A program made the translations under genes and the position numbers. A stretch of DNA of 10,810 nucleotides, taken from the IMG/VR virus record IMGVR_UViG_2917886563_000002; one strand, given 5' to 3'. The notes under the pieces are model-generated. The model did not search any database and was not told the DNA's origin. It was given only the letters and a program-made list of their open reading frames with translations. Below are positions 508-10,810 of this stretch, piece by piece. Origin of the DNA: a virus. Lineage: Duplodnaviria > Heunggongvirae > Uroviricota > Caudoviricetes. Within the stretch, counting starts at the first letter, position 1; each line of letters opens with the position of its first letter.

Positions 508-543
508 CTCTATTCAGGTGGCCAAATTTACTATGCCACTACA
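508..543 (-). repeat. Terminal inverted repeat of the IS911-like element (outer end at 543)
   Basis: Lies upstream of the OrfA start; outer end TG (minus) / CA (plus) at 542-543; internal GAGGTGAT/ATCACCTC palindrome at 492-510. Confidence 0.7.
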
Positions 544-599
544 AATAAAACTATATTAGATTATTAATTAGATCATAATAATAATATTCTTTATATCTA

Positions 600-790
600 T
601 ATATATGATCTTTTGCCTTCCGGCGTTAGCTTCACTCCCTGGCAAGCAGCCTTACTCCGCTACCTTTGGGCTACGTTGGCTGGCCCGTTCCGCTCACACC
701 GAAAGCAAAGCGTTACTTTCTTCGTGTAACTATCGTGGCGGTAACGCCCACGAAGAAATACTATTGCGCTGTGCGCAGTAAGAGTAATCA
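600..790. other. GC-richer non-coding segment with nested inverted repeats, unassigned (candidate structured RNA or remnant of a disrupted locus)
   Basis: No ORF of useful length on either strand; local G+C clearly higher than the surrounding AT-rich DNA; contains the 10-bp arm inverted repeat at 713-762. Confidence 0.3.
713..762. repeat. Perfect 10-bp inverted repeat TTTCTTCGTG ... CACGAAGAAA with 30-nt spacer
   Basis: Read directly: tttcttcgtg at 713-722 and cacgaagaaa at 753-762. Confidence 0.7.
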
Positions 791-893
791 CCTAACCAAT
801 CATACTGATTGCTTACGTGTTAACTCTCTCTAACTCTTAATTACCCTCCTACATTTAATAACTCTCGTTATTCTCTGTAGTCGTGTAATTGTT

Positions 894-925
894 TTCGGTG
901 GAAAAGCCAGAGGCGACACCGAAAG
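894..925. repeat. 8-bp inverted repeat TTTCGGTG ... CACCGAAA, related in sequence to the 713-762 hairpin arms
   Basis: tttcggtg at 894-901 and caccgaaa at 918-925; the decamer ACACCGAAAG occurs at 696-705 and again at 916-925. Confidence 0.6.
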
Positions 926-934
926 AGAATTCTG

Positions 935-1000
935 ATCTTATTAATCTTATCTATCTTAGTTAATCTTCTTACTTATCTTACTTACTTTATCTACTTTATT
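935..1000 (+). repeat. Pyrimidine-rich tract with periodic ATCTTA hexamers (iteron-like array)
   Basis: ATCTTA at 935, 944, 953 and 975, with degenerate copies (ATCTTC, CTTACT, ATCTAC) between and after; spacing of 9 bp for the first three. Confidence 0.5.
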
Positions 1001-1507
1001 ATTAATAATAGCTTTATAAGCTCTGTGTAGCTCTCTGACGCAAGAAACAGCATTCAGGAAGGGAATCACCTTAGAAAAGGTGTTCTTTGCGTCATAATGT
1101 GTTTTATGAAGGATTCAGAGGTGTTTCATAACAGGAATGTATAGAGGATACTTTAATTAATTAAAAATAAGGGGTCTAAATGCTTCTCTAACAGCATTAA
1201 GCAGGGTAGGGAATGGAAACGCATTGTCTACATATAATAAGCTCACTACAGAGCTTTACAGAGCGTTTTTATAAAGTGACTCTCTATCTTATATCTACCA
1301 TTACCTTTTCATATACCTAACAAATACAAAATAAGCCCCTTAAATAAGCCTCTGGCGAGCTAAACAGCCATTACATAAGGGAATGTATTGCTTTTATCAA
1401 AATCTCGTTATAACGCGTTTTAGACAATAATGAAGAATGGCACTACACAGAAGAGCACGAGTTGCTCGTAAGTGCATGAAAAAGATCGATTTTTTTCGGA
1501 AGGGGTA

Positions 1508-1536
1508 TTGACAAACGTCTCTTTCTGTGCAATAAT
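1508..1536 (+). promoter_or_regulatory. Sigma70-type promoter candidate (TTGACA, 17-bp spacer, TGcAATAAT extended -10)
   Basis: ttgaca at 1508-1513; aataat at 1531-1536 preceded by tg at 1528-1529; AT-rich upstream; imperfect palindrome GCACGAGttgCTCGTaaGTGC at 1455-1475. Confidence 0.55.
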
Positions 1537-1590
1537 AGGAATTAGAGGGGACAGGAATAGATTCTTATCCTCTAAATAATTAAACCAATG

Positions 1591-1634
1591 CACCGCACTT
1601 TGAAGCCCAAGGCTTGCAAGGTGTTTTTTCTTTT
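1591..1634 (+). terminator. GC-rich stem-loop followed by T6CT4 run in the 5' leader of the first cargo gene (intrinsic terminator or attenuator candidate)
   Basis: CACCGCA...TGCaaGGTG pairing at 1591-1623 with inner AAGCC/GGCTT hairpin, then ttttttctttt at 1624-1634; lies between the 1508-1536 promoter and the SD at 1648-1654. Confidence 0.45.
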
Positions 1635-1661
1635 AACCAAATAGAATAAGGAGGCTAATTA

Positions 1662-1838
1662 ATGAAATATTTTACTCCACAGGATGTAGTAGAAGCCTGG
1701 AAACGTGGTGAGATCAACCGCTTTAAAGTAAGGATGTATAGAAACACCGCTCGCCGTTGTGGTTATCCAGAGCGTGAAAAATGTTTTGACGATGCACTGA
1801 AAATTATTGATGAACTGCGTAAAGCTGAGAAAGAATAA
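1662..1838 (+). CDS. Small basic hypothetical protein (58 aa), absent from the supplied ORF track
   Basis: ATG at 1662 preceded by AAGGAGG (1648-1654); hand translation MKYFTPQDVVEAWKRGEINRFKVRMYRNTARRCGYPEREKCFDDALKIIDELRKAEKE, stop TAA at 1836-1838. Confidence 0.6.
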   Translation: MKYFTPQDVVEAWKRGEINRFKVRMYRNTARRCGYPEREKCFDDALKIIDELRKAEKE

Positions 1839-1860
1839 TAGACAAGAGAAGGAGAAAACT

Positions 1861-2028
1861 ATGAGCGAAACTAAGAAACCAATTCCGCGCACTTACCTAC
1901 ACGTTGACCCTGAAATCTTCAAGGTTTTATTTGCTGAAGCCAAGAAAAGGCAAATTATGGTCAGTGATTTGATGTTAGAAATCATTACTGAAGCAGCAGA
2001 GAACATCAAACAAAAAAAGGGTAAGTGA
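1861..2028 (+). CDS. Small DNA-binding protein, ribbon-helix-helix-like (55 aa)
   Basis: ATG at 1861 with GAAGGAGA SD 5 nt upstream (the track's 1807 start lacks an SD). MSETKKPIPRTYLHVDPEIFKVLFAEAKKRQIMVSDLMLEIITEAAENIKQKKGK shows a polar/hydrophobic alternating strand (RTYLHV) followed by two helices, the RHH pattern. Confidence 0.6.
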   Translation: MSETKKPIPRTYLHVDPEIFKVLFAEAKKRQIMVSDLMLEIITEAAENIKQKKGK

Positions 2029-2079
2029 TCCTCATTCACTTTAGTAGCGCATTAAGCGTGATTTATAAGGAGATTTTTA

Positions 2080-2769
2080 ATGATTAATCAACTAACTTTT
2101 ACAAAACACTATGACACGTTTGATAATGTATCAAAGATTTATTCTGATAAATTCCCTCAAGGAAAAGATTTAGATCTATTACATATTGTGCTTTATTTTC
2201 GATTCCTTAGTTATCAGGAAAACAACCTTAATTGTTATGAAAGTCACGAAACATTAGCTAAGATTTTTAAGTCTTCAGCGTCAACAATTAAACGTAAGAT
2301 AAACGATCTTAAAGAGATGGGATTATTAGAAACATCCCCACATCCTGATCCGTATATTTCATCTTTGATTTACAATGCTCTCCCTCTCACAGATGCACAT
2401 ATTACTCCCCCAGGAGAATCATCACTCTCTGATCTTTCTGAGGCAGAAGAAGCACAGGAACAACCTAAAGGCCATAAACAGCCTTCTTTTGATGCTCTTG
2501 ATGATTGGGATACGCCTTTACCCTGGGAGATGGAAGAAACACCTGTTTCATCAAGTGAAAAGGTAGCTAATGATAATGAGGAGGATGTGTTAAAGAATTT
2601 TGCCTCTCTTATCATCCAGGAGAAACACACAAGAACAGGAGGAGCATCATTTATTGAGTTTGCAAATTCACTAGCTTGTAGATACGGGCTAAAACGACCA
2701 AATGGTATTGAGGCATATTTTGCTAAGAAACATCCCAAAGTATATGAAGACTTTGATATTCCATTTTAA
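2080..2769 (+). CDS. Hypothetical protein with N-terminal winged-HTH-like domain, acidic Pro-rich linker and C-terminal domain (229 aa)
   Basis: SD AAGGAG 7 nt upstream; N-terminus ...LHIVLYFRFLSYQENNLNCYESHETLAKIFKSSASTIKRKINDLKEMGLLE has the look of a wHTH of phage/plasmid replication or regulatory proteins. Confidence 0.8.
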   Translation: MINQLTFTKHYDTFDNVSKIYSDKFPQGKDLDLLHIVLYFRFLSYQENNLNCYESHETLAKIFKSSASTIKRKINDLKEMGLLETSPHPDPYISSLIYNALPLTDAHITPPGESSLSDLSEAEEAQEQPKGHKQPSFDALDDWDTPLPWEMEETPVSSSEKVANDNEEDVLKNFASLIIQEKHTRTGGASFIEFANSLACRYGLKRPNGIEAYFAKKHPKVYEDFDIPF

Positions 2770-2780
2770 TAAGGAGGGTT

Positions 2781-3059
2781 ATGATTCAATATTTAGTAAA
2801 AAATCAAGTAGACAGAATTCAGTGTAATGACACAGGAAAACGCATCTACGAGACACTTGCTTACCTCTATAAAGGAAAGCCAACACCGCTAAAATATAGC
2901 GATGTGTTACATCGAGCAGGTTGCTCTGAAGCTGGTTTAAAATTCTGGCTGAAACAGCTATCAGATTTCGGTGTTATAGAGATTAAAGAATTATCTTTCT
3001 CTACATTCAATCTCAAAAGATTAGATAAAGAAATAGACTTCATCTATTCCACTCTCTAA
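2781..3059 (+). CDS. Small winged-HTH-like protein (92 aa), paralogous in pattern to the N-domain of the 2080-2769 product
   Basis: SD AAGGAGGG immediately upstream; ...RIYETLAYLYKGKPTPLKYSDVLHRAGCSEAGLKFWLKQLSDFGVIEI. Confidence 0.7.
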   Translation: MIQYLVKNQVDRIQCNDTGKRIYETLAYLYKGKPTPLKYSDVLHRAGCSEAGLKFWLKQLSDFGVIEIKELSFSTFNLKRLDKEIDFIYSTL

Positions 3060-3100
3060 AATCTCTCTATGTAATTAAAATATAAAAGGAAAACATTATT

Positions 3101-3247
3101 ATGATAGTAGCTATGTATTGGTTATTGTTCTTTCTCACGTTAGAAGCATATTTCGGGGTGTTTTCCTTTAAAAGAAAAGGAAAAGTAAATGGCAAAAAGA
3201 AAAAAACAACGTTGTTAAGAAGATCGGTGATTCAGCTTCTCTTCTAA
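3101..3247 (+). CDS. Small predicted membrane peptide (48 aa): hydrophobic N-terminus, Lys/Arg-rich C-terminus; possibly the 5' part of a longer frameshifted gene
   Basis: ATG at 3101 with AAGGA about 10 nt upstream; hand translation MIVAMYWLLFFLTLEAYFGVFSFKRKGKVNGKKKKTTLLRRSVIQLLF; not in the ORF track. Confidence 0.4.
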   Translation: MIVAMYWLLFFLTLEAYFGVFSFKRKGKVNGKKKKTTLLRRSVIQLLF

Positions 3248-3360
3248 GTAAACCTAAATCTATTCTAAGACGCAAAGACTTTAAAGAGCTAGTTACGCTC
3301 ACCAAGCAAAATAGCGCCCCTGGCGAATGGAAAACAGAGATCATAGAACATTCTCCCTCT

Positions 3361-3600
3361 GTGCCTTGTGGAGATGAATTTAACGCCTTACAAGAAATCT
3401 TATCTTCAACACCTGGCGTATTCTGGAAACCCAGGAAAAGAAAAGAGTATATCGTTGATAGCTCTGATTTACGCAAATACCAGATTTTAGGATTTGAAGA
3501 TTATAATCACTACGTTGGTTATCTCGCTACCAATGGCCTAAATAATTTAGTTCCAGAATTCCAGATTTTAGATAATGCTGATCACTATGGAGACTTTTAA
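3361..3600 (+). CDS. Hypothetical protein fragment; this frame is open from 3172 with no ATG and is probably the downstream part of a gene starting at 3101
   Basis: Track ORF starts at GTG 3361 with no SD; the same frame is stop-free back to 3172 and overlaps the 3101-3247 ORF across an A-run at 3194-3206. Confidence 0.35.
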   Translation: MPCGDEFNALQEILSSTPGVFWKPRKRKEYIVDSSDLRKYQILGFEDYNHYVGYLATNGLNNLVPEFQILDNADHYGDF

Positions 3601-3601
3601 T

Positions 3602-3940
3602 ATGAACAAAAACACGTATGACACAATTTACTCACTAATTAATTATTATGAGGATGATTACCTCCTGCCTTTAAACCGCGCTGAACTTGAAGCATACAAA
3701 GAAAACACGCCAGCGGCACTAAATGAGGCGTTTAAACACTGGGATTTAGCTGTGAATGCCTTTGAGCACCTCTCTAAGCGTGTAGAGATGCTCTGTAAGC
3801 GCGAAAACGCATATCTGACAGCCGATCAGATATGGGAGCTATCAAACTGGATAGAAGATATTGAATCTGATGTTCGCTATGTAGGGGATGGCCTTGTTGA
3901 ACTCGCACAACGCTTAGGCGCTGCTATCACAGAAGAATAA
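3602..3940 (+). CDS. Acidic hypothetical protein (112 aa from ATG 3602; the track's 3575 start is less likely)
   Basis: GGAG at 3590-3593 sits 8 nt before ATG 3602; product MNKNTYDTIYSLINYYEDDYLLPLNRAELEAYKENTPAALNEAFKHWDLAVNAFEHLSK... is strongly net acidic by hand count (about 22 D/E against 10 K/R). Confidence 0.65.
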   Translation: MNKNTYDTIYSLINYYEDDYLLPLNRAELEAYKENTPAALNEAFKHWDLAVNAFEHLSKRVEMLCKRENAYLTADQIWELSNWIEDIESDVRYVGDGLVELAQRLGAAITEE

Positions 3941-3969
3941 AAAAAGCAACAAAAAAGTTGTAAAATATC

Positions 3970-3998
3970 TTGACATTTCATATATTGTATGTTAATAT
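3970..3998 (+). promoter_or_regulatory. Sigma70-type promoter candidate (TTGACA, 17-bp spacer, TGtTAATAT)
   Basis: ttgaca at 3970-3975; taatat at 3993-3998 preceded by tg at 3990-3991. Confidence 0.5.
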
Positions 3999-4132
3999 AA
4001 TTATATAGGGGTGATTATTTTTCCTTTATTGGTTCGATATTAAAAATTCTTCTTGTCGTTAAAGGGGAGTAAAATCTCCGCTCCCCGCTTCTCCTCCTTA
4101 AGTAATACTGTGTCATACCTCTTTTTTCCTTT

Positions 4133-4162
4133 GTTATGCATACATCTTGGAGTGTGCATAAC
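4133..4162. repeat. Inverted repeat GTTATGCA ... TGCATAAC (operator-like), with a third GTTATGCA copy at 4211-4218
   Basis: gttatgca at 4133-4140, tgcataac at 4155-4162, gttatgca at 4211-4218; adjacent palindrome CAACTTaaAAGTTG at 4217-4230. Confidence 0.6.
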
Positions 4163-4176
4163 ATAGGGTAATTACA

Positions 4177-4207
4177 AAGGCGGCTTTAAATGCTGCCTTT
4201 TATTTTG
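4177..4207 (+). terminator. Stem-loop followed by T-rich run (intrinsic terminator or attenuator candidate)
   Basis: AAGGCGGC (4177-4184) pairs with GCTGCCTT (4192-4199) with one G-T wobble, loop tttaaat, then ttattttg. Confidence 0.45.
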
Positions 4208-4268
4208 CCCGTTATGCAACTTAAAAGTTGTATTTCTTACTTTAAACAAGGTAACAAGGTTTATATAA

Positions 4269-4481
4269 ATGTTGTTCTTAAATGATAAAGAGCAAATCAT
4301 CAAGTATAAAGATGAAATGCTGCGAATTACTCCACAAATTACCGAAATGGTAGCTAAATACGCTGGGTGTTCTGTCGAGGAAGTAGAAAGATGTGTTGAA
4401 AAATATTTTTCTCCTTCTTCTCCGTCTACACCTTCCCTTAATGAATTAATCAAATTAAAAGCTAAGGAGATTACTAAATGA
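4269..4481 (+). CDS. Small acidic hypothetical protein (70 aa)
   Basis: Track ORF; weak SD (AAGG about 10 nt upstream); its stop overlaps the next start (ATGA at 4478-4481), suggesting translational coupling. Confidence 0.55.
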   Translation: MLFLNDKEQIIKYKDEMLRITPQITEMVAKYAGCSVEEVERCVEKYFSPSSPSTPSLNELIKLKAKEITK

Positions 4482-4840
4482 TTATTGATTTAGACACTCT
4501 TTTTCCAGTTCGAAAGACTTTCACAGATATTGTAAGTTACTGTACTGATCCGTTTGCTTCTGTAGAAAGCAAGGTTTTTGCTTCTCTTCCTGCTGATGTT
4601 GAATGCGGAGACTTGATCACCAGCACGGGCGCTAAATATGAATCAGGAGATGATATCTATGTTGTTATGAGTGAATTTGTAACGGCAGGAGAAAACAAGC
4701 CTGTAGATGTGCTACGTAGCAATGCTGGCCTTGTGTGCATTAAAGCTGATGCGCTGAATGCTGTAAGTGAAGCAGCAAAAACAGCATTAATTAAAAAAGG
4801 CTTCCAGCTTGAAGGCTTTAACACGGTTTTCACTTCTTAA
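4478..4840 (+). CDS. Hypothetical protein (120 aa)
   Basis: SD AAGGAGA at 4463-4469; overlapping stop-start with the upstream gene; no family recognised. Confidence 0.7.
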   Translation: MIIDLDTLFPVRKTFTDIVSYCTDPFASVESKVFASLPADVECGDLITSTGAKYESGDDIYVVMSEFVTAGENKPVDVLRSNAGLVCIKADALNAVSEAAKTALIKKGFQLEGFNTVFTS

Positions 4841-4858
4841 TAAAAGGAATAATAATAA

Positions 4859-5887
4859 ATGATTCTAGGTAATGATTACGTTGATTTAGCTCCGCTTTTC
4901 CAGACACACAGCACGCGTAACTTTCTGCTCTCTACCCTCGACTTCACTGATCCGGTGGGCGTTAGTTCTCATAAAGTAGCTGTTTCCCAGCTTGTCGAAA
5001 GCAACGAATCTCTCTTTAACAAAGAGACAAGCCGTTTTAGTTCTGAACACAATGTTACTAAGCGAGAACAAGGTAAAGAATGGCTGATTGAAATCCCGTA
5101 TTTTCTTCGTGAGGATGTGATCCGTCCTTCTGATGTTCAAGGCAAGCGTAAGCCTGGCACTGATTTTCAGGAAACACTTACTGATATCTATGCTGACTAT
5201 GTTGCTAAACACCACGTAGCGTATCAGCGTACAAAAGAGAGCGTGTTGGCGGCTTCTTTGTTCTCTGGCAAAACTTACACGCCTAAAACTGACGATGTGT
5301 TAATTGAGTGGGGCAAGCTGTTTAACGTATCAGCTATGAAAGCCACTGTTAACGCCTCCAGCACTGACACCACGAAGATTTTTAAAGAATTTGATCAGAT
5401 TGCTACTGACATTATCGAAAAAGCACAAAGCCAGGCGGCTGCTGTAGAGCGTATTGTTGTTTTCTGTAAGCCGGAAGCCTTCTCTGCAATTCGATTCTCT
5501 GCTGGTATGGCAAACGCATTCCAGTATGTAAGCCCACTGGAAGAGGGGAACGTTGTGTATCAGCGTCGTGACCTGCTACCAGGAGTGACAGCGTTCACTA
5601 TTCCAGGAACTAACATTGATGTTGTTAAACTGGTAGATCCGCTACACCTGGCACATATGACCGCAGACGCTGTAGCTGTGCCTAAATTCGCTAAAGGCTC
5701 TAACGTATATCAGAACATTTACGGGGCTGCTTCCAGCACTTTTGAACTGATTAATGCCGCTCCTGCTGAGGTGTATAGCTATAGCTATGAATCTTCTCGT
5801 GGTGATGCTGTTAACGTTGTTACAGAGAATAGCCAGATGGTGGTAAACCACGGCGTTGGCTTCTCCGTTCAAATCACTGTTAAATAA
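4859..5887 (+). CDS. Hypothetical protein (342 aa); candidate structural (capsid-like) protein, unverified
   Basis: SD AAGGA upstream; long ORF with protein-like composition and no signal peptide; followed by the strongest terminator in the window; paired with a 120-aa upstream gene. Confidence 0.8.
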   Translation: MILGNDYVDLAPLFQTHSTRNFLLSTLDFTDPVGVSSHKVAVSQLVESNESLFNKETSRFSSEHNVTKREQGKEWLIEIPYFLREDVIRPSDVQGKRKPGTDFQETLTDIYADYVAKHHVAYQRTKESVLAASLFSGKTYTPKTDDVLIEWGKLFNVSAMKATVNASSTDTTKIFKEFDQIATDIIEKAQSQAAAVERIVVFCKPEAFSAIRFSAGMANAFQYVSPLEEGNVVYQRRDLLPGVTAFTIPGTNIDVVKLVDPLHLAHMTADAVAVPKFAKGSNVYQNIYGAASSTFELINAAPAEVYSYSYESSRGDAVNVVTENSQMVVNHGVGFSVQITVK

Positions 5888-5905
5888 TATTTTAACGTGT
5901 AATAG

Positions 5906-5945
5906 AGGCGTGGCGTGTATTCACGCTTCGCCTTTTTTTATTTAT
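5906..5945 (+). terminator. Rho-independent terminator
   Basis: AGGCGTGGCGTG (5906-5917), loop tatt, CACGCTTCGCCT (5922-5933), then ttttttatttatttttt. Confidence 0.75.
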
Positions 5946-5973
5946 TTTTTAAGTTTTGAGAGGTGATTAAAAT

Positions 5974-6177
5974 ATGGAAGTGATTTTGAAATCAAAAAAT
6001 GGTGTACACGTACATTTAGATGCTAATGATTCTAGAGGCTTGTTAAATCTGAAATATCTATGTTCTCTTTTAGATGTTCCCTATGAAGGCGTAAAAGCCC
6101 GTATGTTCAGATTAAACGAGAGTATTGATCAGGCTCTACACCATTTCTTAAGCAAAGAAGGTGGTAAAAATGATTAA
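5974..6177 (+). CDS. Small hypothetical protein (67 aa)
   Basis: SD GAGGTGA 7 nt upstream of ATG 5974; stop 6 nt before the SD of the next gene. Confidence 0.6.
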   Translation: MEVILKSKNGVHVHLDANDSRGLLNLKYLCSLLDVPYEGVKARMFRLNESIDQALHHFLSKEGGKND

Positions 6178-6191
6178 TAAGGGGATTTTAA

Positions 6192-8024
6192 ATGTTAGAA
6201 ATTAACACTTCCAAGATTAAAAATACAGTAACATTTACTGTAGATAAAGACAGCTTGAAAAAAGCGAAAGACTCTATTACAGGCTTAAAGGAATTCGCAG
6301 AGAACATCAAGCCAGCTAAATTAAGATTTGATAGTGTCACTAAAGGCTATAAGAAAGCACAAAGCGAAGTAGACAAGATTGCTCAACAGAAAGCTAAAAC
6401 AGAAAAGCAAAATCAAAGAGCACAAGCTGCCGCAGCAAGAGCACAGGCAAGGCAACAGCAACAAATAGCAGCACGTAAGGAGAAGGCAAACTTAAAACTG
6501 TTAGACGTTGGATCAAGCATTAGTGCATTGCACCGCCTCTCTGTAGCGGAACAATACAAAGCTATTGCACAGGCTAGAGAGATAGCGAAACAATATGAGC
6601 AAGGGGCTATCTCGCTTGCACGTATGAATAGCCAGATGAAACGCTTACAACAGCAACAACGTAAGATTAATGGCAATAGAAAAACTCAATTAGCCCCCGT
6701 TAAGGGAGGAGGATCAGGGAATGCCGCCACTATGGGCGCTCTGTTATTTGGAGGCGCTACGGCTGCTGCTGGCGTGATGGCTGTTAGTAAAACCTCTGAA
6801 TTTATGGCTAACAGCTTTGCGAATGCTGAAACACAAGGCGAGCTAATTCAACGTGCAAGGCTTGGCGGTGTAGACGTTAACCAGATGTATAATATTACAG
6901 AATGGGCCTATAGAAACGGGATCGACTCTATGATGGGTGATCAAGGGGCTAGGAAATACCTGGATCAGATGAAAGATGTTAGGGAACGTGCCGCAAAATC
7001 CTATAGTGAAGCTGAATTAGTGAAAGATAAGAAAACAGGAAAATCTGAATGGAAAGGCGGTGATAACGCTATTAATGAACTTCTAAACATCGGTGTTATT
7101 AACAAAAGCGACCTTAAAAAATTTGCTGATAATCCAGCCGGATTAATTTCTAAGGCTGTTAATGGAATGATGAAAAAAGGGTTTTCAGACTCCCAAATTG
7201 GACAACGTTTAGAAGACCTGGGCGATGATTTGATGCTTACGTCAAAATATTGGCAACGTTCCGTTAAAGATGTACAAGAAAGCATTAACCAGCAAAAAGC
7301 CGCCGGACAATGGCTAACAGAAACACAGCAAGACTCTATTGTTAAATTCAGAGAACTAAACAGACAGCTTTCACAGCTTTCTGATGCAAGACAAGTAGCA
7401 TTCGTAGACGGCTTTATGAAATCTCTTGATCCAAAAGTAACGGAAGAGTTTATGAAAAACCTTTCTAATCTCACTCCGTATTTTACGAAGCTGGGAGAAG
7501 CTACAGGAAGTCTCTTTGAAGCCATTATGAAGATTGTAAACTGGTTTAATCGTAATGATGATAAGACAGATGCTATTCAGAAAAATATGGGTGATGCACC
7601 GCCACTATCTAACGATGGAATGAAACAGAATCTTTCTAACCTCGTTCCTGACCAATATAAAGGCGCTGGCACTGCAACAACTACACCTGATAATAGTCGT
7701 TCTCTCTTTAACACGATTAAGGGATTGCTTTTTGATGATAATTCTTCTGTGTCAGATGTAAAAATGTCAGTCAATGAAGCACCGATAACCAATCTCAAAC
7801 AGGGTGCTTTAAATAATCTTGCAATGACAACTCCGGCTTATAATTTATCTCCTGTGTTTAATCTGAATCCAACGTTTGAAGTGGTAACAGAGGTTCCGCT
7901 TACTATTAATTCTGACACGTCCAGATTAAGTGATTATGTGGATTTTACAGCGAGAGCAAGTCGGGATATCTTCTTGAAATCATTAACATTAACCAGCTTA
8001 TCAGGACAATCTAACGGCGGGTAA
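6192..8024 (+). CDS. Large hypothetical protein (610 aa): Gln/Ala-rich coiled-coil-like N-region, Gly/Ala hydrophobic segment, Asn/Ser/Thr-rich C-terminus; tape-measure-like or scaffold-like, unverified
   Basis: SD AAGGGGA upstream; segments ...KTEKQNQRAQAAAARAQARQQQQIAARKEKANLK... and ...GGGSGNAATMGALLFGGATAAAGVMAVS...; no signal peptide. Confidence 0.8.
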   Translation: MLEINTSKIKNTVTFTVDKDSLKKAKDSITGLKEFAENIKPAKLRFDSVTKGYKKAQSEVDKIAQQKAKTEKQNQRAQAAAARAQARQQQQIAARKEKANLKLLDVGSSISALHRLSVAEQYKAIAQAREIAKQYEQGAISLARMNSQMKRLQQQQRKINGNRKTQLAPVKGGGSGNAATMGALLFGGATAAAGVMAVSKTSEFMANSFANAETQGELIQRARLGGVDVNQMYNITEWAYRNGIDSMMGDQGARKYLDQMKDVRERAAKSYSEAELVKDKKTGKSEWKGGDNAINELLNIGVINKSDLKKFADNPAGLISKAVNGMMKKGFSDSQIGQRLEDLGDDLMLTSKYWQRSVKDVQESINQQKAAGQWLTETQQDSIVKFRELNRQLSQLSDARQVAFVDGFMKSLDPKVTEEFMKNLSNLTPYFTKLGEATGSLFEAIMKIVNWFNRNDDKTDAIQKNMGDAPPLSNDGMKQNLSNLVPDQYKGAGTATTTPDNSRSLFNTIKGLLFDDNSSVSDVKMSVNEAPITNLKQGALNNLAMTTPAYNLSPVFNLNPTFEVVTEVPLTINSDTSRLSDYVDFTARASRDIFLKSLTLTSLSGQSNGG

Positions 8025-8057
8025 TTCCCGCCATAACATTACAAGGAAATTATTATT

Positions 8058-8768
8058 ATGGCGACGGCGGGAATTTTAACCATACGTGCAGCAAATACTC
8101 CAGAACAACACGTTCAGGCTGTTTACAAAGCAGAACAAGATATAAACTCTACAAAAAACGAAAATAGCAAAGCTAATAAAACAAAAGGAGAAAATGGATT
8201 TGCTATTGTCACCAGTGGGCTGGCATCTTCTGTAAGTGACGTTTATGAAAATTATATGGCGTTATCCTTTGACAGTGTTGACGATGTGAACGTGAGACGT
8301 TCGGCAGATGTCACAAGCTATCCTGTAGAAAATGGAGCTAATGTATCGGATCACGTTCAAGTTAAGAATAATAAGTTTGCTCTTAAAGGGCGTATCTCTG
8401 AAACACCGATTAAAAGCGATCCTGGCTTGTTAAAGAGTGCAGGGGTGAACGGGAACAGAAGATCATTAGCTATCGACTACCTGAATCAGATTATGGACAG
8501 TAGACAGCCTTTTCTTCTTGTTACAGAAAATAAAACTTTTGAGAACGTTGTTTTAACAGGCATCGAATACACAGAAGAGGCAAGCGAATCTCTGGTATTT
8601 GATTTGGAATTTGAGCAAATCAGATTAGTTTCTTATGGCACTGTAAACACTGTAGCTATCAAAACACAGCCATCTAAGAACATCGGGGCTAATATGAAAA
8701 AACGTGTTAACACTGAAAAAACAAGTGAAGGTGAAGACACTATTACTCCTGCCTTTAAGCAGGAATAG
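8058..8768 (+). CDS. Hypothetical protein (236 aa); possible virion or tail-associated protein, unverified
   Basis: SD AAGGA 10 nt upstream; immediately follows the 610-aa gene; a stem-loop follows the stop. Confidence 0.75.
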   Translation: MATAGILTIRAANTPEQHVQAVYKAEQDINSTKNENSKANKTKGENGFAIVTSGLASSVSDVYENYMALSFDSVDDVNVRRSADVTSYPVENGANVSDHVQVKNNKFALKGRISETPIKSDPGLLKSAGVNGNRRSLAIDYLNQIMDSRQPFLLVTENKTFENVVLTGIEYTEEASESLVFDLEFEQIRLVSYGTVNTVAIKTQPSKNIGANMKKRVNTEKTSEGEDTITPAFKQE

Positions 8769-8809
8769 CCGTAAACGCCTCTAAAACGCTCTGTAACGAT
8801 GTAATTATA

Positions 8810-8842
8810 AAAGAGGCTACCAATCTATGTTGAAGCCTCTTT
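8810..8842. terminator. Stem-loop between convergent genes (bidirectional terminator candidate)
   Basis: AAAGAGGCT (8810-8818) and AGCCTCTTT (8834-8842), 15-nt loop; T/A-rich flanks on both strands; lies between the 8058-8768 gene and the minus-strand recombinase. Confidence 0.4.
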
Positions 8843-8849
8843 ATTGCGT

Positions 8850-9848
8850 CTATGGCGTTGTTTTACGCCTTAAATTTGATTTTTTATTGATTGATAAGCC
8901 TTTCTCTATTTCAGGGTAGCGTAGAAGCTCAATATATTTTTTAAGCTCTACTGGAGAAGCTGCATTCTTGCTATATGTGCGGAATGTCTCTGTATTGCCG
9001 CGTGTATGGCCCAGGAGAAGGGCGATCCTGTCTTCTGGAATTTGATTTCGATCAAGAAGCTGTGCTACTCCGTGTCTCAGAGAATGAAACACCTTCCTTT
9101 CTGTTCCCTTTTCCCCTAAAGCCTTTCGTTTAGCTCTTGTAAATCTCTGCGTGTGCCACGTGGAACGTTTACCATCAGCACGCTCTGTAATGCTGGCGTG
9201 ATAGAACAAAAAGCCATTGTGAGGCTTTTCACGAAGAGATAACACCAACGGAGTGATAAGGCTATGTACAGGCACAAGACGTGCCGCAGCTTTCGTTTTT
9301 CCCTGTGTGATTTCAAAACACAGCACACCTTCGATCTCTTTCACATCGTCTATTGTGAGACTTGCTATCTCATTGATCCGCATACCTGTATATAAACCGA
9401 TAAGACACAAAGCCGTCATTTCTTTGTTTTCTGCTGAATTACCGGAAAATACTTGCAACACCTGCAATAGCTCTTTGTTAGAAAATGCCTCATAGCTCTC
9501 TCTACTTTGTGCCACATCAAGCCTATGCCCTCGCCAGGGGGAGAGCGCCCTTTCTGGCGCATCGTGGTAACGTGATGAAGCTAACTCCCATAGCTGGGCC
9601 ATTGGGCTGATATAATTTGCAATTGATTGTTGTGAAAGGGTTTTTTGCATGCGTTCTATCCAGCCTGTAACAGTGGTGCGGCTCACATCTTGCAATGCAA
9701 TATCAGGCTTTTTACGGTAGGAGAGAAACATCTCTACCGCTTTTCTTGCCTTAGCTAAAGTGGCTGGCTTCTTCTTCGTGCTGTTAATTGTCAGGTAGAT
9801 TTCAAGAATTTTAAGCAATGACGGACACGAAGACGCTGTATCTTGCAT
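8850..9848 (-). CDS. Tyrosine site-specific recombinase (integrase), 332 aa
   Basis: Catalytic-domain signature in order: Arg in ...LYTGMRINEIASL..., H-x-x-R in ...FHSLRHGVAQLL..., ...LLGHTRG..., and Tyr in ...TFRTYSK...; N-terminal region ...LEIYLTINSTKKKPATLAKARKAVEMFLSY... resembles a core-binding domain. Confidence 0.9.
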   Translation of the reverse strand: MQDTASSCPSLLKILEIYLTINSTKKKPATLAKARKAVEMFLSYRKKPDIALQDVSRTTVTGWIERMQKTLSQQSIANYISPMAQLWELASSRYHDAPERALSPWRGHRLDVAQSRESYEAFSNKELLQVLQVFSGNSAENKEMTALCLIGLYTGMRINEIASLTIDDVKEIEGVLCFEITQGKTKAAARLVPVHSLITPLVLSLREKPHNGFLFYHASITERADGKRSTWHTQRFTRAKRKALGEKGTERKVFHSLRHGVAQLLDRNQIPEDRIALLLGHTRGNTETFRTYSKNAASPVELKKYIELLRYPEIEKGLSINKKSNLRRKTTP

Positions 9849-9925
9849 TCTGGTAGCTGTTTTGGCGTATTTAGCCTTACTTCGTAACAGTTCCAGCGTG
9901 TTCTCTATTGTGCTGTTTACAGGAG

Positions 9926-10810
9926 TGATCTTGACCCGCTATCTCCGGACCGCTTTTGTATCTTAAGTTAACGATGCCCGCTGCCGCCGGTATTCCCTCG
10001 GAGAGTAATATCCCAGCGCGCTGTGCGGGTGGTTTTCATTGTAATGCGTGAACGCTGCTGCAAGGTTTTGCAGGGCTGTTCTCACATCCGGTTTTGGCAT
10101 GAACGCGATATAGTCTTCTTTCATCGTCTTCACGAACCGTTCGGCCATGCCATTACTCTGCGGACTGCTCACCGCTGTTGTACAGGGTTCAAGATTCAGC
10201 TCTCTGGCGAACCTCCGCGTTTCATGCGCAGTATACGCTGAACCGTTATCCGTCAACCACTGCACTGGTGTGTCCGGCAACCTGTCGCCGAAGCGCTTTT
10301 CCACCGACCTCAGCATCACATCCTGTACGGTCGAACTGTCGTAGCCTCCCGTGCTCGCTGCCCAGTCTATGGCCTCTCTGTCGCAGCAGTCCAGCGCGAA
10401 CGTCACCCGCAGTTTTTCACCGTTGTCGCAGCCGAACTCGAAGCCGTCTGAACACCAGCGCATATTGCTTTCTGCCACCGCGATTTTTCCCTTGTGTTCA
10501 CGCTTCGGTCGCTCTGGTTTGTCATGCAACAACAACAGGTTATGCTCGCTCATTATCCTGTAAAGTCGTTTGGCGTTCACCGGTGGCTCTCCCTCAGTGC
10601 GACGTTGCTTGCGCAGGATGCCCCACACGCGTCGATAACCATAACTCGGCATATCGCTGATGATATCGAGGATATCCGTCAGTATTTCAGCGTCTGCTTC
10701 GTCATTACGCCGGTTACAGCGCCTGTCCTGCCAGTCGGCAGAACGGTTAACTCGCAGTGACAGCTGCGCACGCGACACGCCCATGGTGCGGCTGACCAGG
10801 GCTATTCCCC
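9926..10810 (-). mobile_element. IS3-family insertion sequence, IS2-like, partial (OrfA side runs off the right window edge)
   Basis: Minus-strand end reads ...GGCGGCAGCGGGCATCGTTAACTTAAGATACAAAAGCGGTCCGGAGATAGCGGGTCAAGATCA, the same pattern as the IS2 right end as recalled; G+C rises at 9926; encodes an IS2 OrfB-like transposase. Confidence 0.88.
9963..10784 (-). CDS. IS3-family (IS2 group) transposase OrfB, DDE catalytic domain
   Basis: ...[13 protein letters not shown]...RWCSDGFEF...[13 protein letters not shown]...[11 protein letters not shown]...[11 protein letters not shown]...[12 protein letters not shown]; D, D and E motif residues present; frame continues upstream past 10784 toward the window edge. 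Confidence 0.92.

Follow-up and report, generated by a model that had tools for sequence, protein, structure and literature searches.

A tape measure protein homologue on a thrW-associated island of Escherichia coli and its possible part in chimeric phage tails

The virus record IMGVR_UViG_2917886563_000002 comprises 10,810 nucleotides (nt), the whole of which was analysed and is termed the window. An open reading frame (ORF) at positions 6192-8024 encodes a protein of 610 amino acids (aa) which, judged by its sequence, is homologous to phage tape measure proteins (TMPs) and adds a member to the phi92-type TMP family. Positions ~538-9923 of the window are about 95% identical to an island present in 209 complete Escherichia coli genomes, and the two ends consist of insertion sequence (IS) material.

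The tape measure gene and its homologues

The TMP gene and the segments of its product are located as follows.

6192-8024, + strand: TMP gene, 610 aa, homologue of phi92 gp134 and of the phiWec188 TMP
6192-6326, + strand: TMP residues 1-45, N-terminal segment matched to the presumed helper phage (73% identity to phi92 gp134, residues 1-23 identical)
6327-6701, + strand: TMP residues 46-170, long helices including the Gln/Ala-rich repeat (from AlphaFold2 and alignment)
6705-6788, + strand: TMP residues 172-199, Gly/Ala-rich hydrophobic segment GGGSGNAATMGALLFGGATAAAGVMAVS, presumed to be membrane-inserting (Kyte-Doolittle 19-residue maximum 1.6)
6801-7391, + strand: TMP residues 204-400, mostly helical central domain, confidently predicted and carrying invariant residues
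7887-8021, + strand: TMP residues 566-610, predicted C-terminal anchor (62% identity to the phiWec188 TMP)

The gene starts with ATG behind a GGGG Shine-Dalgarno-like run. All features of the protein that had been named in a preliminary description of the window, made from the sequence by itself, are present where that description placed them. The Gln/Ala-rich region covers residues 65-100 (nt 6384-6491), the most hydrophobic 19 residues lie within GGGSGNAATMGALLFGGATAAAGVMAVS (residues 180-198) and are borderline for a transmembrane segment, and the Asn/Ser/Thr-rich part corresponds to the final 150 residues, with 14% Asn, 11% Leu and 9% Ser in residues 461-560 and 16% Ser and 14% Thr in residues 561-610. 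AlphaFold2, run on an alignment of 35 sequences, predicts long helices at residues 46-111, 118-136 and 142-167 (predicted local distance difference test, pLDDT, 84-98) and, confidently, a mostly helical domain at residues ~205-395, while confidence is low across the Gly/Ala stretch and beyond residue 399, in the C-terminal third. Relatives of the protein include thousands of near-identical copies, the intact ones of 608-616 aa alone numbering in the thousands, and form 73 representative clusters at 50% identity. The ratio of nonsynonymous to synonymous substitution rates (dN/dS) among the island TMPs is 0.10-0.23, that is, the whole gene is under purifying selection. These copies, clusters and ratios rule out a chance ORF.

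The assignment as a TMP, already considered in the preliminary description, is carried by three matches. Among the PHROGs the protein matches phrog_16051 (E 7e-53), annotated as 'tail length tape measure protein'; its residues 1-608 align with the 651-aa TMP of the Phapecoctavirus phiWec188 (E 4e-58), the gene for which is placed between tail chaperone-sized genes and baseplate genes; and a PDB sequence search returns Phi92_gp134 of entry 21vq (E 3.6e-38), from the Justusliebigvirus phi92. In phi92, gp134 is a trimeric TMP of which residues 631-656 are resolved inside the baseplate (PLoS Pathog 2026, PMC13450770), and this is the segment to which residues ~583-608 of the window protein align. 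One UniRef cluster of relatives already carries the name tape measure protein, and the best named matches to the AlphaFold2 model among predicted viral structures (BFVD) are TMPs. No model for the protein exists in Pfam, NCBIfam or PADLOC, recognition coming only from PHROGs and the PDB sequence search. Foldseek comparison of the model with the PDB yielded only insignificant helical look-alikes (best E 0.48), so that no enzymatic or other domain can be assigned, and no enzymatic domain was detected by Pfam or NCBIfam either. A translated search of 50,697 phage genomes placed the phage relatives exclusively in myoviruses of ~150 kb, mainly Phapecoctavirus and Justusliebigvirus (Stephanstirmvirinae), which are virulent and lack an integrase. 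All homologues found belong either to a phage tail module or to a mobile island. The scaffold-like, ejection-protein and 'unrelated' options entertained in the preliminary description found no support, full-length TMP homology being observed instead.

The window TMP is collinear with phi92 gp134 and the phiWec188 TMP and shares with them the hydrophobic segment, the central invariant residues, the C-terminal anchor and the position upstream of the tube initiator gene. It differs in being 41-49 aa shorter (610 versus 651-659 aa) and in starting with ATG and not with TTG. Island TMPs in general measure 599-626 aa versus ~645-660 aa in the phages, and they are without both a Gly/Pro-rich insert and a charged helix of ~38 aa that the phage proteins have. 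Across phage and island TMPs, D258, K261, D262 and E341 are invariant and K281, G289, G290, P315 and D346 nearly so, with G435 also in the conserved set; the hydrophobic character of the Gly/Ala segment is likewise conserved in both groups.

Similarity to the phage proteins is unevenly distributed along the molecule. Residues 1-45, of which the first 23 are identical to gp134, show 73% identity to phi92 and 59% to phiWec188, versus 33-44% to other islands. Residues 566-610, predicted from the alignment to be a baseplate-docking anchor, are 62% identical to phiWec188 and 38% to phi92, and the core between the ends is 11-32% identical to phage TMPs. At both ends the phage TMPs are nearer relatives than the other island TMPs are. 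Nucleotide similarity of the island to phages is limited to the tube initiator gene and the first 69 nt of the TMP gene, where 64 of 69 positions agree with phi92 and 63 of 69 with the sister island of strain APEC O1 (avian pathogenic E. coli, APEC). Distant islands encode nearly the same N-terminal peptide with different codons. The simplest reading of this nucleotide pattern is that the first 69 nt may be a recent short recombination patch, exchanged with a phi92-like phage in the same cell. A mosaic patch is seen within the central domain. Relative to L018 and L017, two island copies from E. coli, the synonymous difference is 0.6-0.74 at codons ~250-400 (window ~6940-7390) and 0.13-0.26 in the flanks, which indicates intragenic recombination.

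The surrounding island and its relatives

Directly downstream of the TMP gene lies an ORF (8058-8768) that matches Pfam Dit_like (E 6.9e-29) and is 62% identical to phi92 gp135 (E 8.6e-79 against chain N of 21vq), the hexameric tube initiator that forms a ring on the hub (PMC13450770). This homology, together with a position relative to the TMP gene that is the same as in phi92 and phiWec188, identifies the ORF as a tube initiator. The preliminary description had stated that no other tail gene was present, which this adjoining ORF contradicts; it had rightly sensed that the absence of tube and sheath genes is of interest. Neither Pfam nor PHROG scans of the window ORFs revealed a gene for a terminase, portal, protease, sheath, tube, hub or fibre protein. 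The remaining features of the window are given below.

1-537, - strand: IS3-family fragment with an IS911-like orfA at 159-470, in place of ~2.4 kb at the left of the island, with loss of attL and the iterons
2080-2769, + strand: HTH_36 protein, replication-initiator-like (phrog_270, E 3.6e-9)
3970-3998, + strand: sigma-70-like promoter, TTGACA-17-TAATAT with TG extension (consensus match)
4176-4200, + strand: terminator-like hairpin in the leader (hairpin and T-run at the equivalent place in distant islands)
4269-4481, + strand: conserved 70-aa gene, the first of the structural operon
4478-4840, + strand: island-specific conserved 120-aa protein upstream of the major capsid protein (MCP) homologue, at the position of the phage cement protein
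4859-5887, + strand: MCP homologue, Phage_cap_E fold family, 342 aa (22% identity to phi92 gp124)
5905-5929, + strand: terminator-like hairpin between the MCP and TMP parts of the operon (consensus match)
5974-6177, + strand: ORF of 67 aa directly upstream of the TMP gene (62-76 aa, always upstream of island TMPs)
8058-8768, + strand: tail tube initiator (Dit_like), 236 aa, homologue of phi92 gp135
8850-9923, - strand: tyrosine integrase, cut by the IS and missing ~68 N-terminal codons (425 aa in APEC O1)
9924-10810, - strand: IS2-like element with orfB at 9963-10784, replacing the 5' end of the integrase gene and attR

The MCP homologue matches Phi92_gp124 in a PDB search. The T=13 capsid of phi92 is formed by gp124, with gp123 as its cement protein (PMC13450770). 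The 120-aa protein showed no similarity to gp123, and the 67-aa protein none to the chaperones gp132 and gp133, by BLAST or by local hhalign profile comparison (probability <=3%); the scaffold gp122 likewise showed no similarity to the conserved small island proteins compared. The 70-aa product, too, has no detectable counterpart among the phage cement, scaffold and chaperone proteins. The AlphaFold2 model of the 120-aa protein was too poor for use (pLDDT 51). Small ORFs are also present to the left of the structural operon. PADLOC returned only weak helix-turn-helix matches among the island proteins, for the initiator-like protein.

The promoter at 3970-3998 is followed by a leader of ~270 nt that carries terminator-like hairpins and precedes the structural operon. 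The conservation of the leader hairpin suggests that the operon is controlled by antitermination or by a helper factor. The hairpin at 5905-5929 would lower TMP expression relative to the capsid protein, and phi92 likewise has a terminator just after its MCP gene. All promoter and terminator calls for the operon are consensus matches only. Late-promoter motifs shared between helper and island were sought; both use sigma-70-like promoters and terminators.

In APEC O1 the intact island measures 12.2 kb between 25-nt direct repeats of the thrW 3' end and adjoins tRNA-Thr (thrW), between proA and the vat toxin region. Going by the APEC O1 annotation, we take this thrW region next to vat to be the published vat 'pathogenicity island'. 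Most of the island genes are merely hypothetical in the NCBI annotation. The IS pieces at the two ends of the window both belong to the IS3 family but are presumably of different types, IS911-like and IS2-like, by sequence comparison. A circular form of the window was considered and rejected, as orfA and orfB belong to different IS types and homology to the island stops at 538 and 9923. The structural ORFs are intact in this truncated copy. The GC content of the island is 39%, versus 38% in the phi92 structural module and 53% in the host flanks.

The left arm of the island is poor in genes. Window positions 538-1660 (>1.1 kb) hold no convincing ORF, the corresponding stretch of APEC O1 is 3.6 kb long with a single annotated coding sequence of 52 aa, and distant islands have 1.5-2 kb of this kind. 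No Rfam family matched the gene-poor arm; across the window and three islands Rfam found the thrW tRNA only. In APEC O1 the arm contains four tandem 22-bp repeats, TAGGTCAnnGTGAGCTAGGGGG (L001:4911-4993), which are deleted from the window and constitute a possible replication origin or regulator-binding array. Helicase-like or other initiators occur in relatives of the island, alongside the HTH_36 protein of the window and the iterons of APEC O1. An inverted-repeat motif of ~45 nt (AATCA..TTGGCAtTTcTAAACAgATGTTTgaacGTTGCCAAAT) is 84-92% conserved among islands whose proteins are 30-60% identical (L001:4275-4320, L003:~2640-2680, L065:~2315-2355, and L006, L008 and L005). It lies ~200 nt from a small recombinase gene and is a candidate cis site, such as pac/cos, an origin or an operator.

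To analyse the distribution of the island genes, 61 fetched loci were searched by local tblastn with every protein of the window and with 22 structural proteins of phi92. In ~45 island loci the TMP gene occurs with or without the initiator and MCP genes and with no other virion gene within 10 kb, terminase, portal, protease, sheath, tube and hub genes all being absent over that distance by tblastn; the 16 phage loci in the same comparison hold a complete virion module. The island order is a protein of ~120 aa, the MCP-like protein (~345 aa), a protein of ~62 aa, the TMP (599-626 aa), usually the Dit-like initiator, and the integrase, and even islands with TMPs only 30-39% identical to that of the window have the same gene order. 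The hosts comprise Escherichia (E. coli, E. albertii and E. fergusonii), Citrobacter, Klebsiella, Kluyvera, Buttiauxella, Phytobacter, Enterobacter, Leclercia and Cronobacter. The TMP-initiator pair is present in 575 of 5426 complete E. coli genomes (about 10%), and carriers of the family include APEC O1, O104:H4 and ST131 strains. None of the 575 genomes contains DNA resembling the phi92 sheath or tube genes, so that, at this sensitivity, the missing virion parts are not stored elsewhere in the chromosome.

The family is itself diverse. A second E. coli island type, found in 271 complete genomes including O104:H4 2009EL-2071 (L020-L033), encodes a TMP with 62% protein identity (~71% at the DNA level) to that of the window and a very divergent yet collinear MCP-like gene. 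The integrases of the two types are 98-99% identical and their structural genes very different. Up to three family members occur in single E. coli genomes. In most islands outside E. coli (L003-L008 and L065) a second tyrosine recombinase of 185-193 aa (Phage_integrase) is located at the left end on the opposite strand (e.g. L003:1882-2442); in L020 a serine resolvase takes the place of this short recombinase at the left end. The two ends of the contig L007 (Logan SRR7500800, 14,065 nt) share 30 identical bases, as is typical of a circle assembled with k=31 and consistent with a circular molecule. It encodes a ParA-like protein, a 185-aa tyrosine recombinase, the MCP-like protein, the TMP and the tube initiator, lacks the large integrase, and possibly represents a family member that exists as a plasmid-like element or episome. 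The variant L008 adds homologues of the phi92 adaptor gp126 (40% identity, at 6739-7239) and of the baseplate plug gp136 (59%, Pfam Pam3_gp18, at 11809-12240), and the set of replaced helper parts consequently differs between lineages.

Helper dependence and the rival explanations

A TMP gene and its initiator on a 12-kb island that lacks tube, sheath, chaperone and hub genes contrast with gp134, which belongs to a 148-kb virulent phage. The 610-aa protein is probably the TMP of a helper-dependent mobile island, and the phages exploited by this satellite would be large virulent myoviruses of the phi92 type (Stephanstirmvirinae: Justusliebigvirus, Phapecoctavirus). What the preliminary description had regarded as a reduced or novel kind of structural protein would then be explained by a satellite-type island that depends on a helper.

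By analogy with phi92 gp134 the island TMP would form a trimer. Its C-terminal ~45 residues would dock in the helper baseplate hub, below the ring of the island's own tube initiator, and the helper tube and sheath would polymerise along the long helices up to the N-terminal ~45 residues, where the helper-like N-terminus would be recognised or capped by helper neck, chaperone or terminator proteins. On infection the TMP would be ejected, and the Gly/Ala segment and central domain would help the DNA to cross the envelope. The phi92 tail has 24 tube/sheath rings (PMC13450770) for a TMP of 659 aa, from which scaling gives ~22 rings for 610 aa; as the island TMP is ~40-50 residues shorter, the tail is predicted to be shorter by ~2 rings (6-8 nm). 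Since the island also carries a capsid homologue, the particle would be a chimera of island capsid protein, TMP and initiator with the remainder supplied by the helper. Volume scaling from T=13 and 148 kb would give a head of roughly T=3 for 12-14 kb. The island may use the helper's tail chaperone in place of one of its own. The signs of packaging and transfer by a helper are indirect, namely the circular 14-kb relative, the phi92 recombination patch and the helper-like GC content.

A wider proposition is offered tentatively and falls a little short of being probable. The islands would constitute an undescribed satellite family of Enterobacteriaceae, present in about one in ten complete E. coli genomes, which replaces three virion parts of the ~150-kb Stephanstirmvirinae and builds small heads and shorter tails. 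The TMP ends would be repeatedly re-matched to locally circulating helpers through short gene-conversion patches.

Several points weigh against the satellite interpretation. The window copy has lost both att sites, the iteron region and the N-terminal part of the integrase and is probably immobile in consequence. Some members of the island family lack the tube initiator, no homologue of a tail assembly chaperone was found in the island, and no packaging determinant was identified there (no terS and no cos or pac site). The MCP homologue is just 19-22% identical to helper MCPs, which makes its co-assembly with the helper portal and scaffold uncertain. Conserved, helper-matched TMP ends are equally expected of a poisoning decoy, and induction, replication and packaging of the island by any phage are inferred.

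Such a decoy is the alternative that deserves most attention. The island TMP, initiator and MCP could act as an assembly-interference defence, in which dominant-negative parts co-assemble with those of the invading phage, lead to defective tails and heads and thereby protect the bacterial population, with or without mobility of the island itself; this function may also coexist with that of a satellite. The choice of genes suits it, the TMP trimer and the initiator hexamer being low-copy or nucleating parts and efficient points for poisoning, and so do the TMP termini that match the helper phages and the intact structural ORFs of the IS-crippled window copy. Tail assembly is a known target of defence (Tai, Tab, Rta), and a defensive role is also known for PLE and other satellites that exploit virulent phages. 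PADLOC gave no match, however, and purifying selection extends over the full length of the TMP, including the hydrophobic segment and the central-domain residues that phage TMPs also have, which are relevant to ejection rather than to poisoning. The integrase, att repeats, initiator-like gene, circular relative and constant size of 12-14 kb point instead to a packaged mobile element, and a decoy as the explanation is considered unlikely.

That the TMP is a functionless leftover of a once-complete phage, intact by accident, would be in keeping with the IS-flanked and truncated window copy, the cut integrase and the mostly hypothetical annotation of the island genes in NCBI. It is nevertheless very improbable, as islands of many genera, with TMPs 30-39% identical, repeat this reduced set of genes in the same order, dN/dS is 0.1-0.2 with thousands of intact copies of 608-616 aa, and the related phages are ~150-kb virulent phages lacking an integrase, with no locus that holds the missing genes. 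Least credible of all is a function other than that of a TMP (capsid scaffold, internal or ejection protein, or an unrelated TMP-like membrane protein): the capsid gene does end only 300 nt before this gene, mis-assignment is easy with helical low-complexity proteins and no Pfam or NCBIfam model matches, but the protein is collinear with the experimentally located gp134, whose C-terminus is seen in the baseplate, its synteny with the tube initiator is exactly that of the phages, and the scaffold gp122 resembles none of the small island proteins compared.

Relation to known satellites and significance

The closest parallel to the proposed satellite is found in the PLEs of Vibrio cholerae. Their TMP, chaperone and hub protein replace the ICP1 counterparts, giving chimeric tails that are 10 nm shorter, and deletion of the PLE tmp gene cuts transduction by 96-99.9% (Nature 2026, PMC12987554). 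With this TMP-TAC-BhuB system the island would share the situation of a satellite of a large virulent myovirus which encodes its own shorter TMP and an adjacent central-baseplate protein. PLE takes tube, sheath and fibres from its helper, as the island would. The two differ in host clade and helper family, in the chaperone, which PLE has and which was not found in the island, in the capsid-protein homologue, present in the island and absent from PLEs, and in the partner protein, which is a tube-initiator ring in the island and BhuB in PLE. No sequence relation to ICP1-type proteins was detected: no Vibrio phage was among the organism names listed for the tblastn search with the TMP, which gave all but three of the names.

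The EPIP satellites of Mycolicibacterium aichiense (bioRxiv 2025, PMC12822802) also encode a TMP and an MCP and lack tail tube genes, and the length of their tails differs from that of the helper, EPIP tails being longer. Unlike the island, EPIPs additionally encode terS, a scaffold and a head-tail adaptor and stopper, use a serine integrase, and parasitise a temperate siphovirus-type prophage in hosts unrelated to those of the island. According to the PLE paper (PMC12987554) and the EPIP preprint (PMC12822802), TMPs are otherwise unknown in satellites.

Capsid-forming PICIs (cf-PICIs) and SaPIbov5 with its Ccm protein have in common with the island a capsid-protein homologue of HK97 fold. In cf-PICIs the genes for head and packaging are complete (portal, protease, connectors and terminase), and whole tails are obtained from the helper. 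The island, in contrast, lacks portal, protease and terminase and has tail parts. Searches of the island ORFs with Pfam and PHROG revealed none of the markers of PICI, cf-PICI or P4-like satellites (AlpA, Pri-Rep, TerS, Rpp, portal, protease, connectors, Sid, Psu and Delta). The island therefore resembles PLE in its tail strategy and cf-PICI/SaPIbov5 in having its own capsid homologue, and does not fit the PICI, cf-PICI or P4-like types by their markers. Full-text literature searches found no described satellite of Stephanstirmvirinae, Phapecoctavirus, Justusliebigvirus or phi92, and the thrW island was not found described as a satellite; a commentary on jumbo-phage satellites and a paper on Pakpunavirus proved unrelated to this island family.

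The view until 2025-26 was that satellites acquire complete tails from their helpers, and satellite-encoded TMPs have been shown only for the Vibrio PLEs and proposed for the mycobacterial EPIPs. If the satellite interpretation holds, the islands would be a second, unrelated and, in E. coli and its relatives, very common family, and chimeric tail building would be a general strategy of satellites and not a curiosity of Vibrio. They would also provide a tractable E. coli model with a helper of solved structure (phi92), in which a question left open for PLE could be addressed, namely how the TMP of the satellite gets chosen over that of the phage. The classic thrW 'pathogenicity island' region beside vat would in part have to be re-interpreted. 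An unrecognised element might moreover affect the success of the Stephanstirmvirinae phages, which are therapy candidates against uropathogenic E. coli (UPEC), APEC and K1/K92 strains. Since work on phage therapy makes use of phages of the phi92 and phAPEC8 types, its outcome would then depend in part on the island as a hidden factor.

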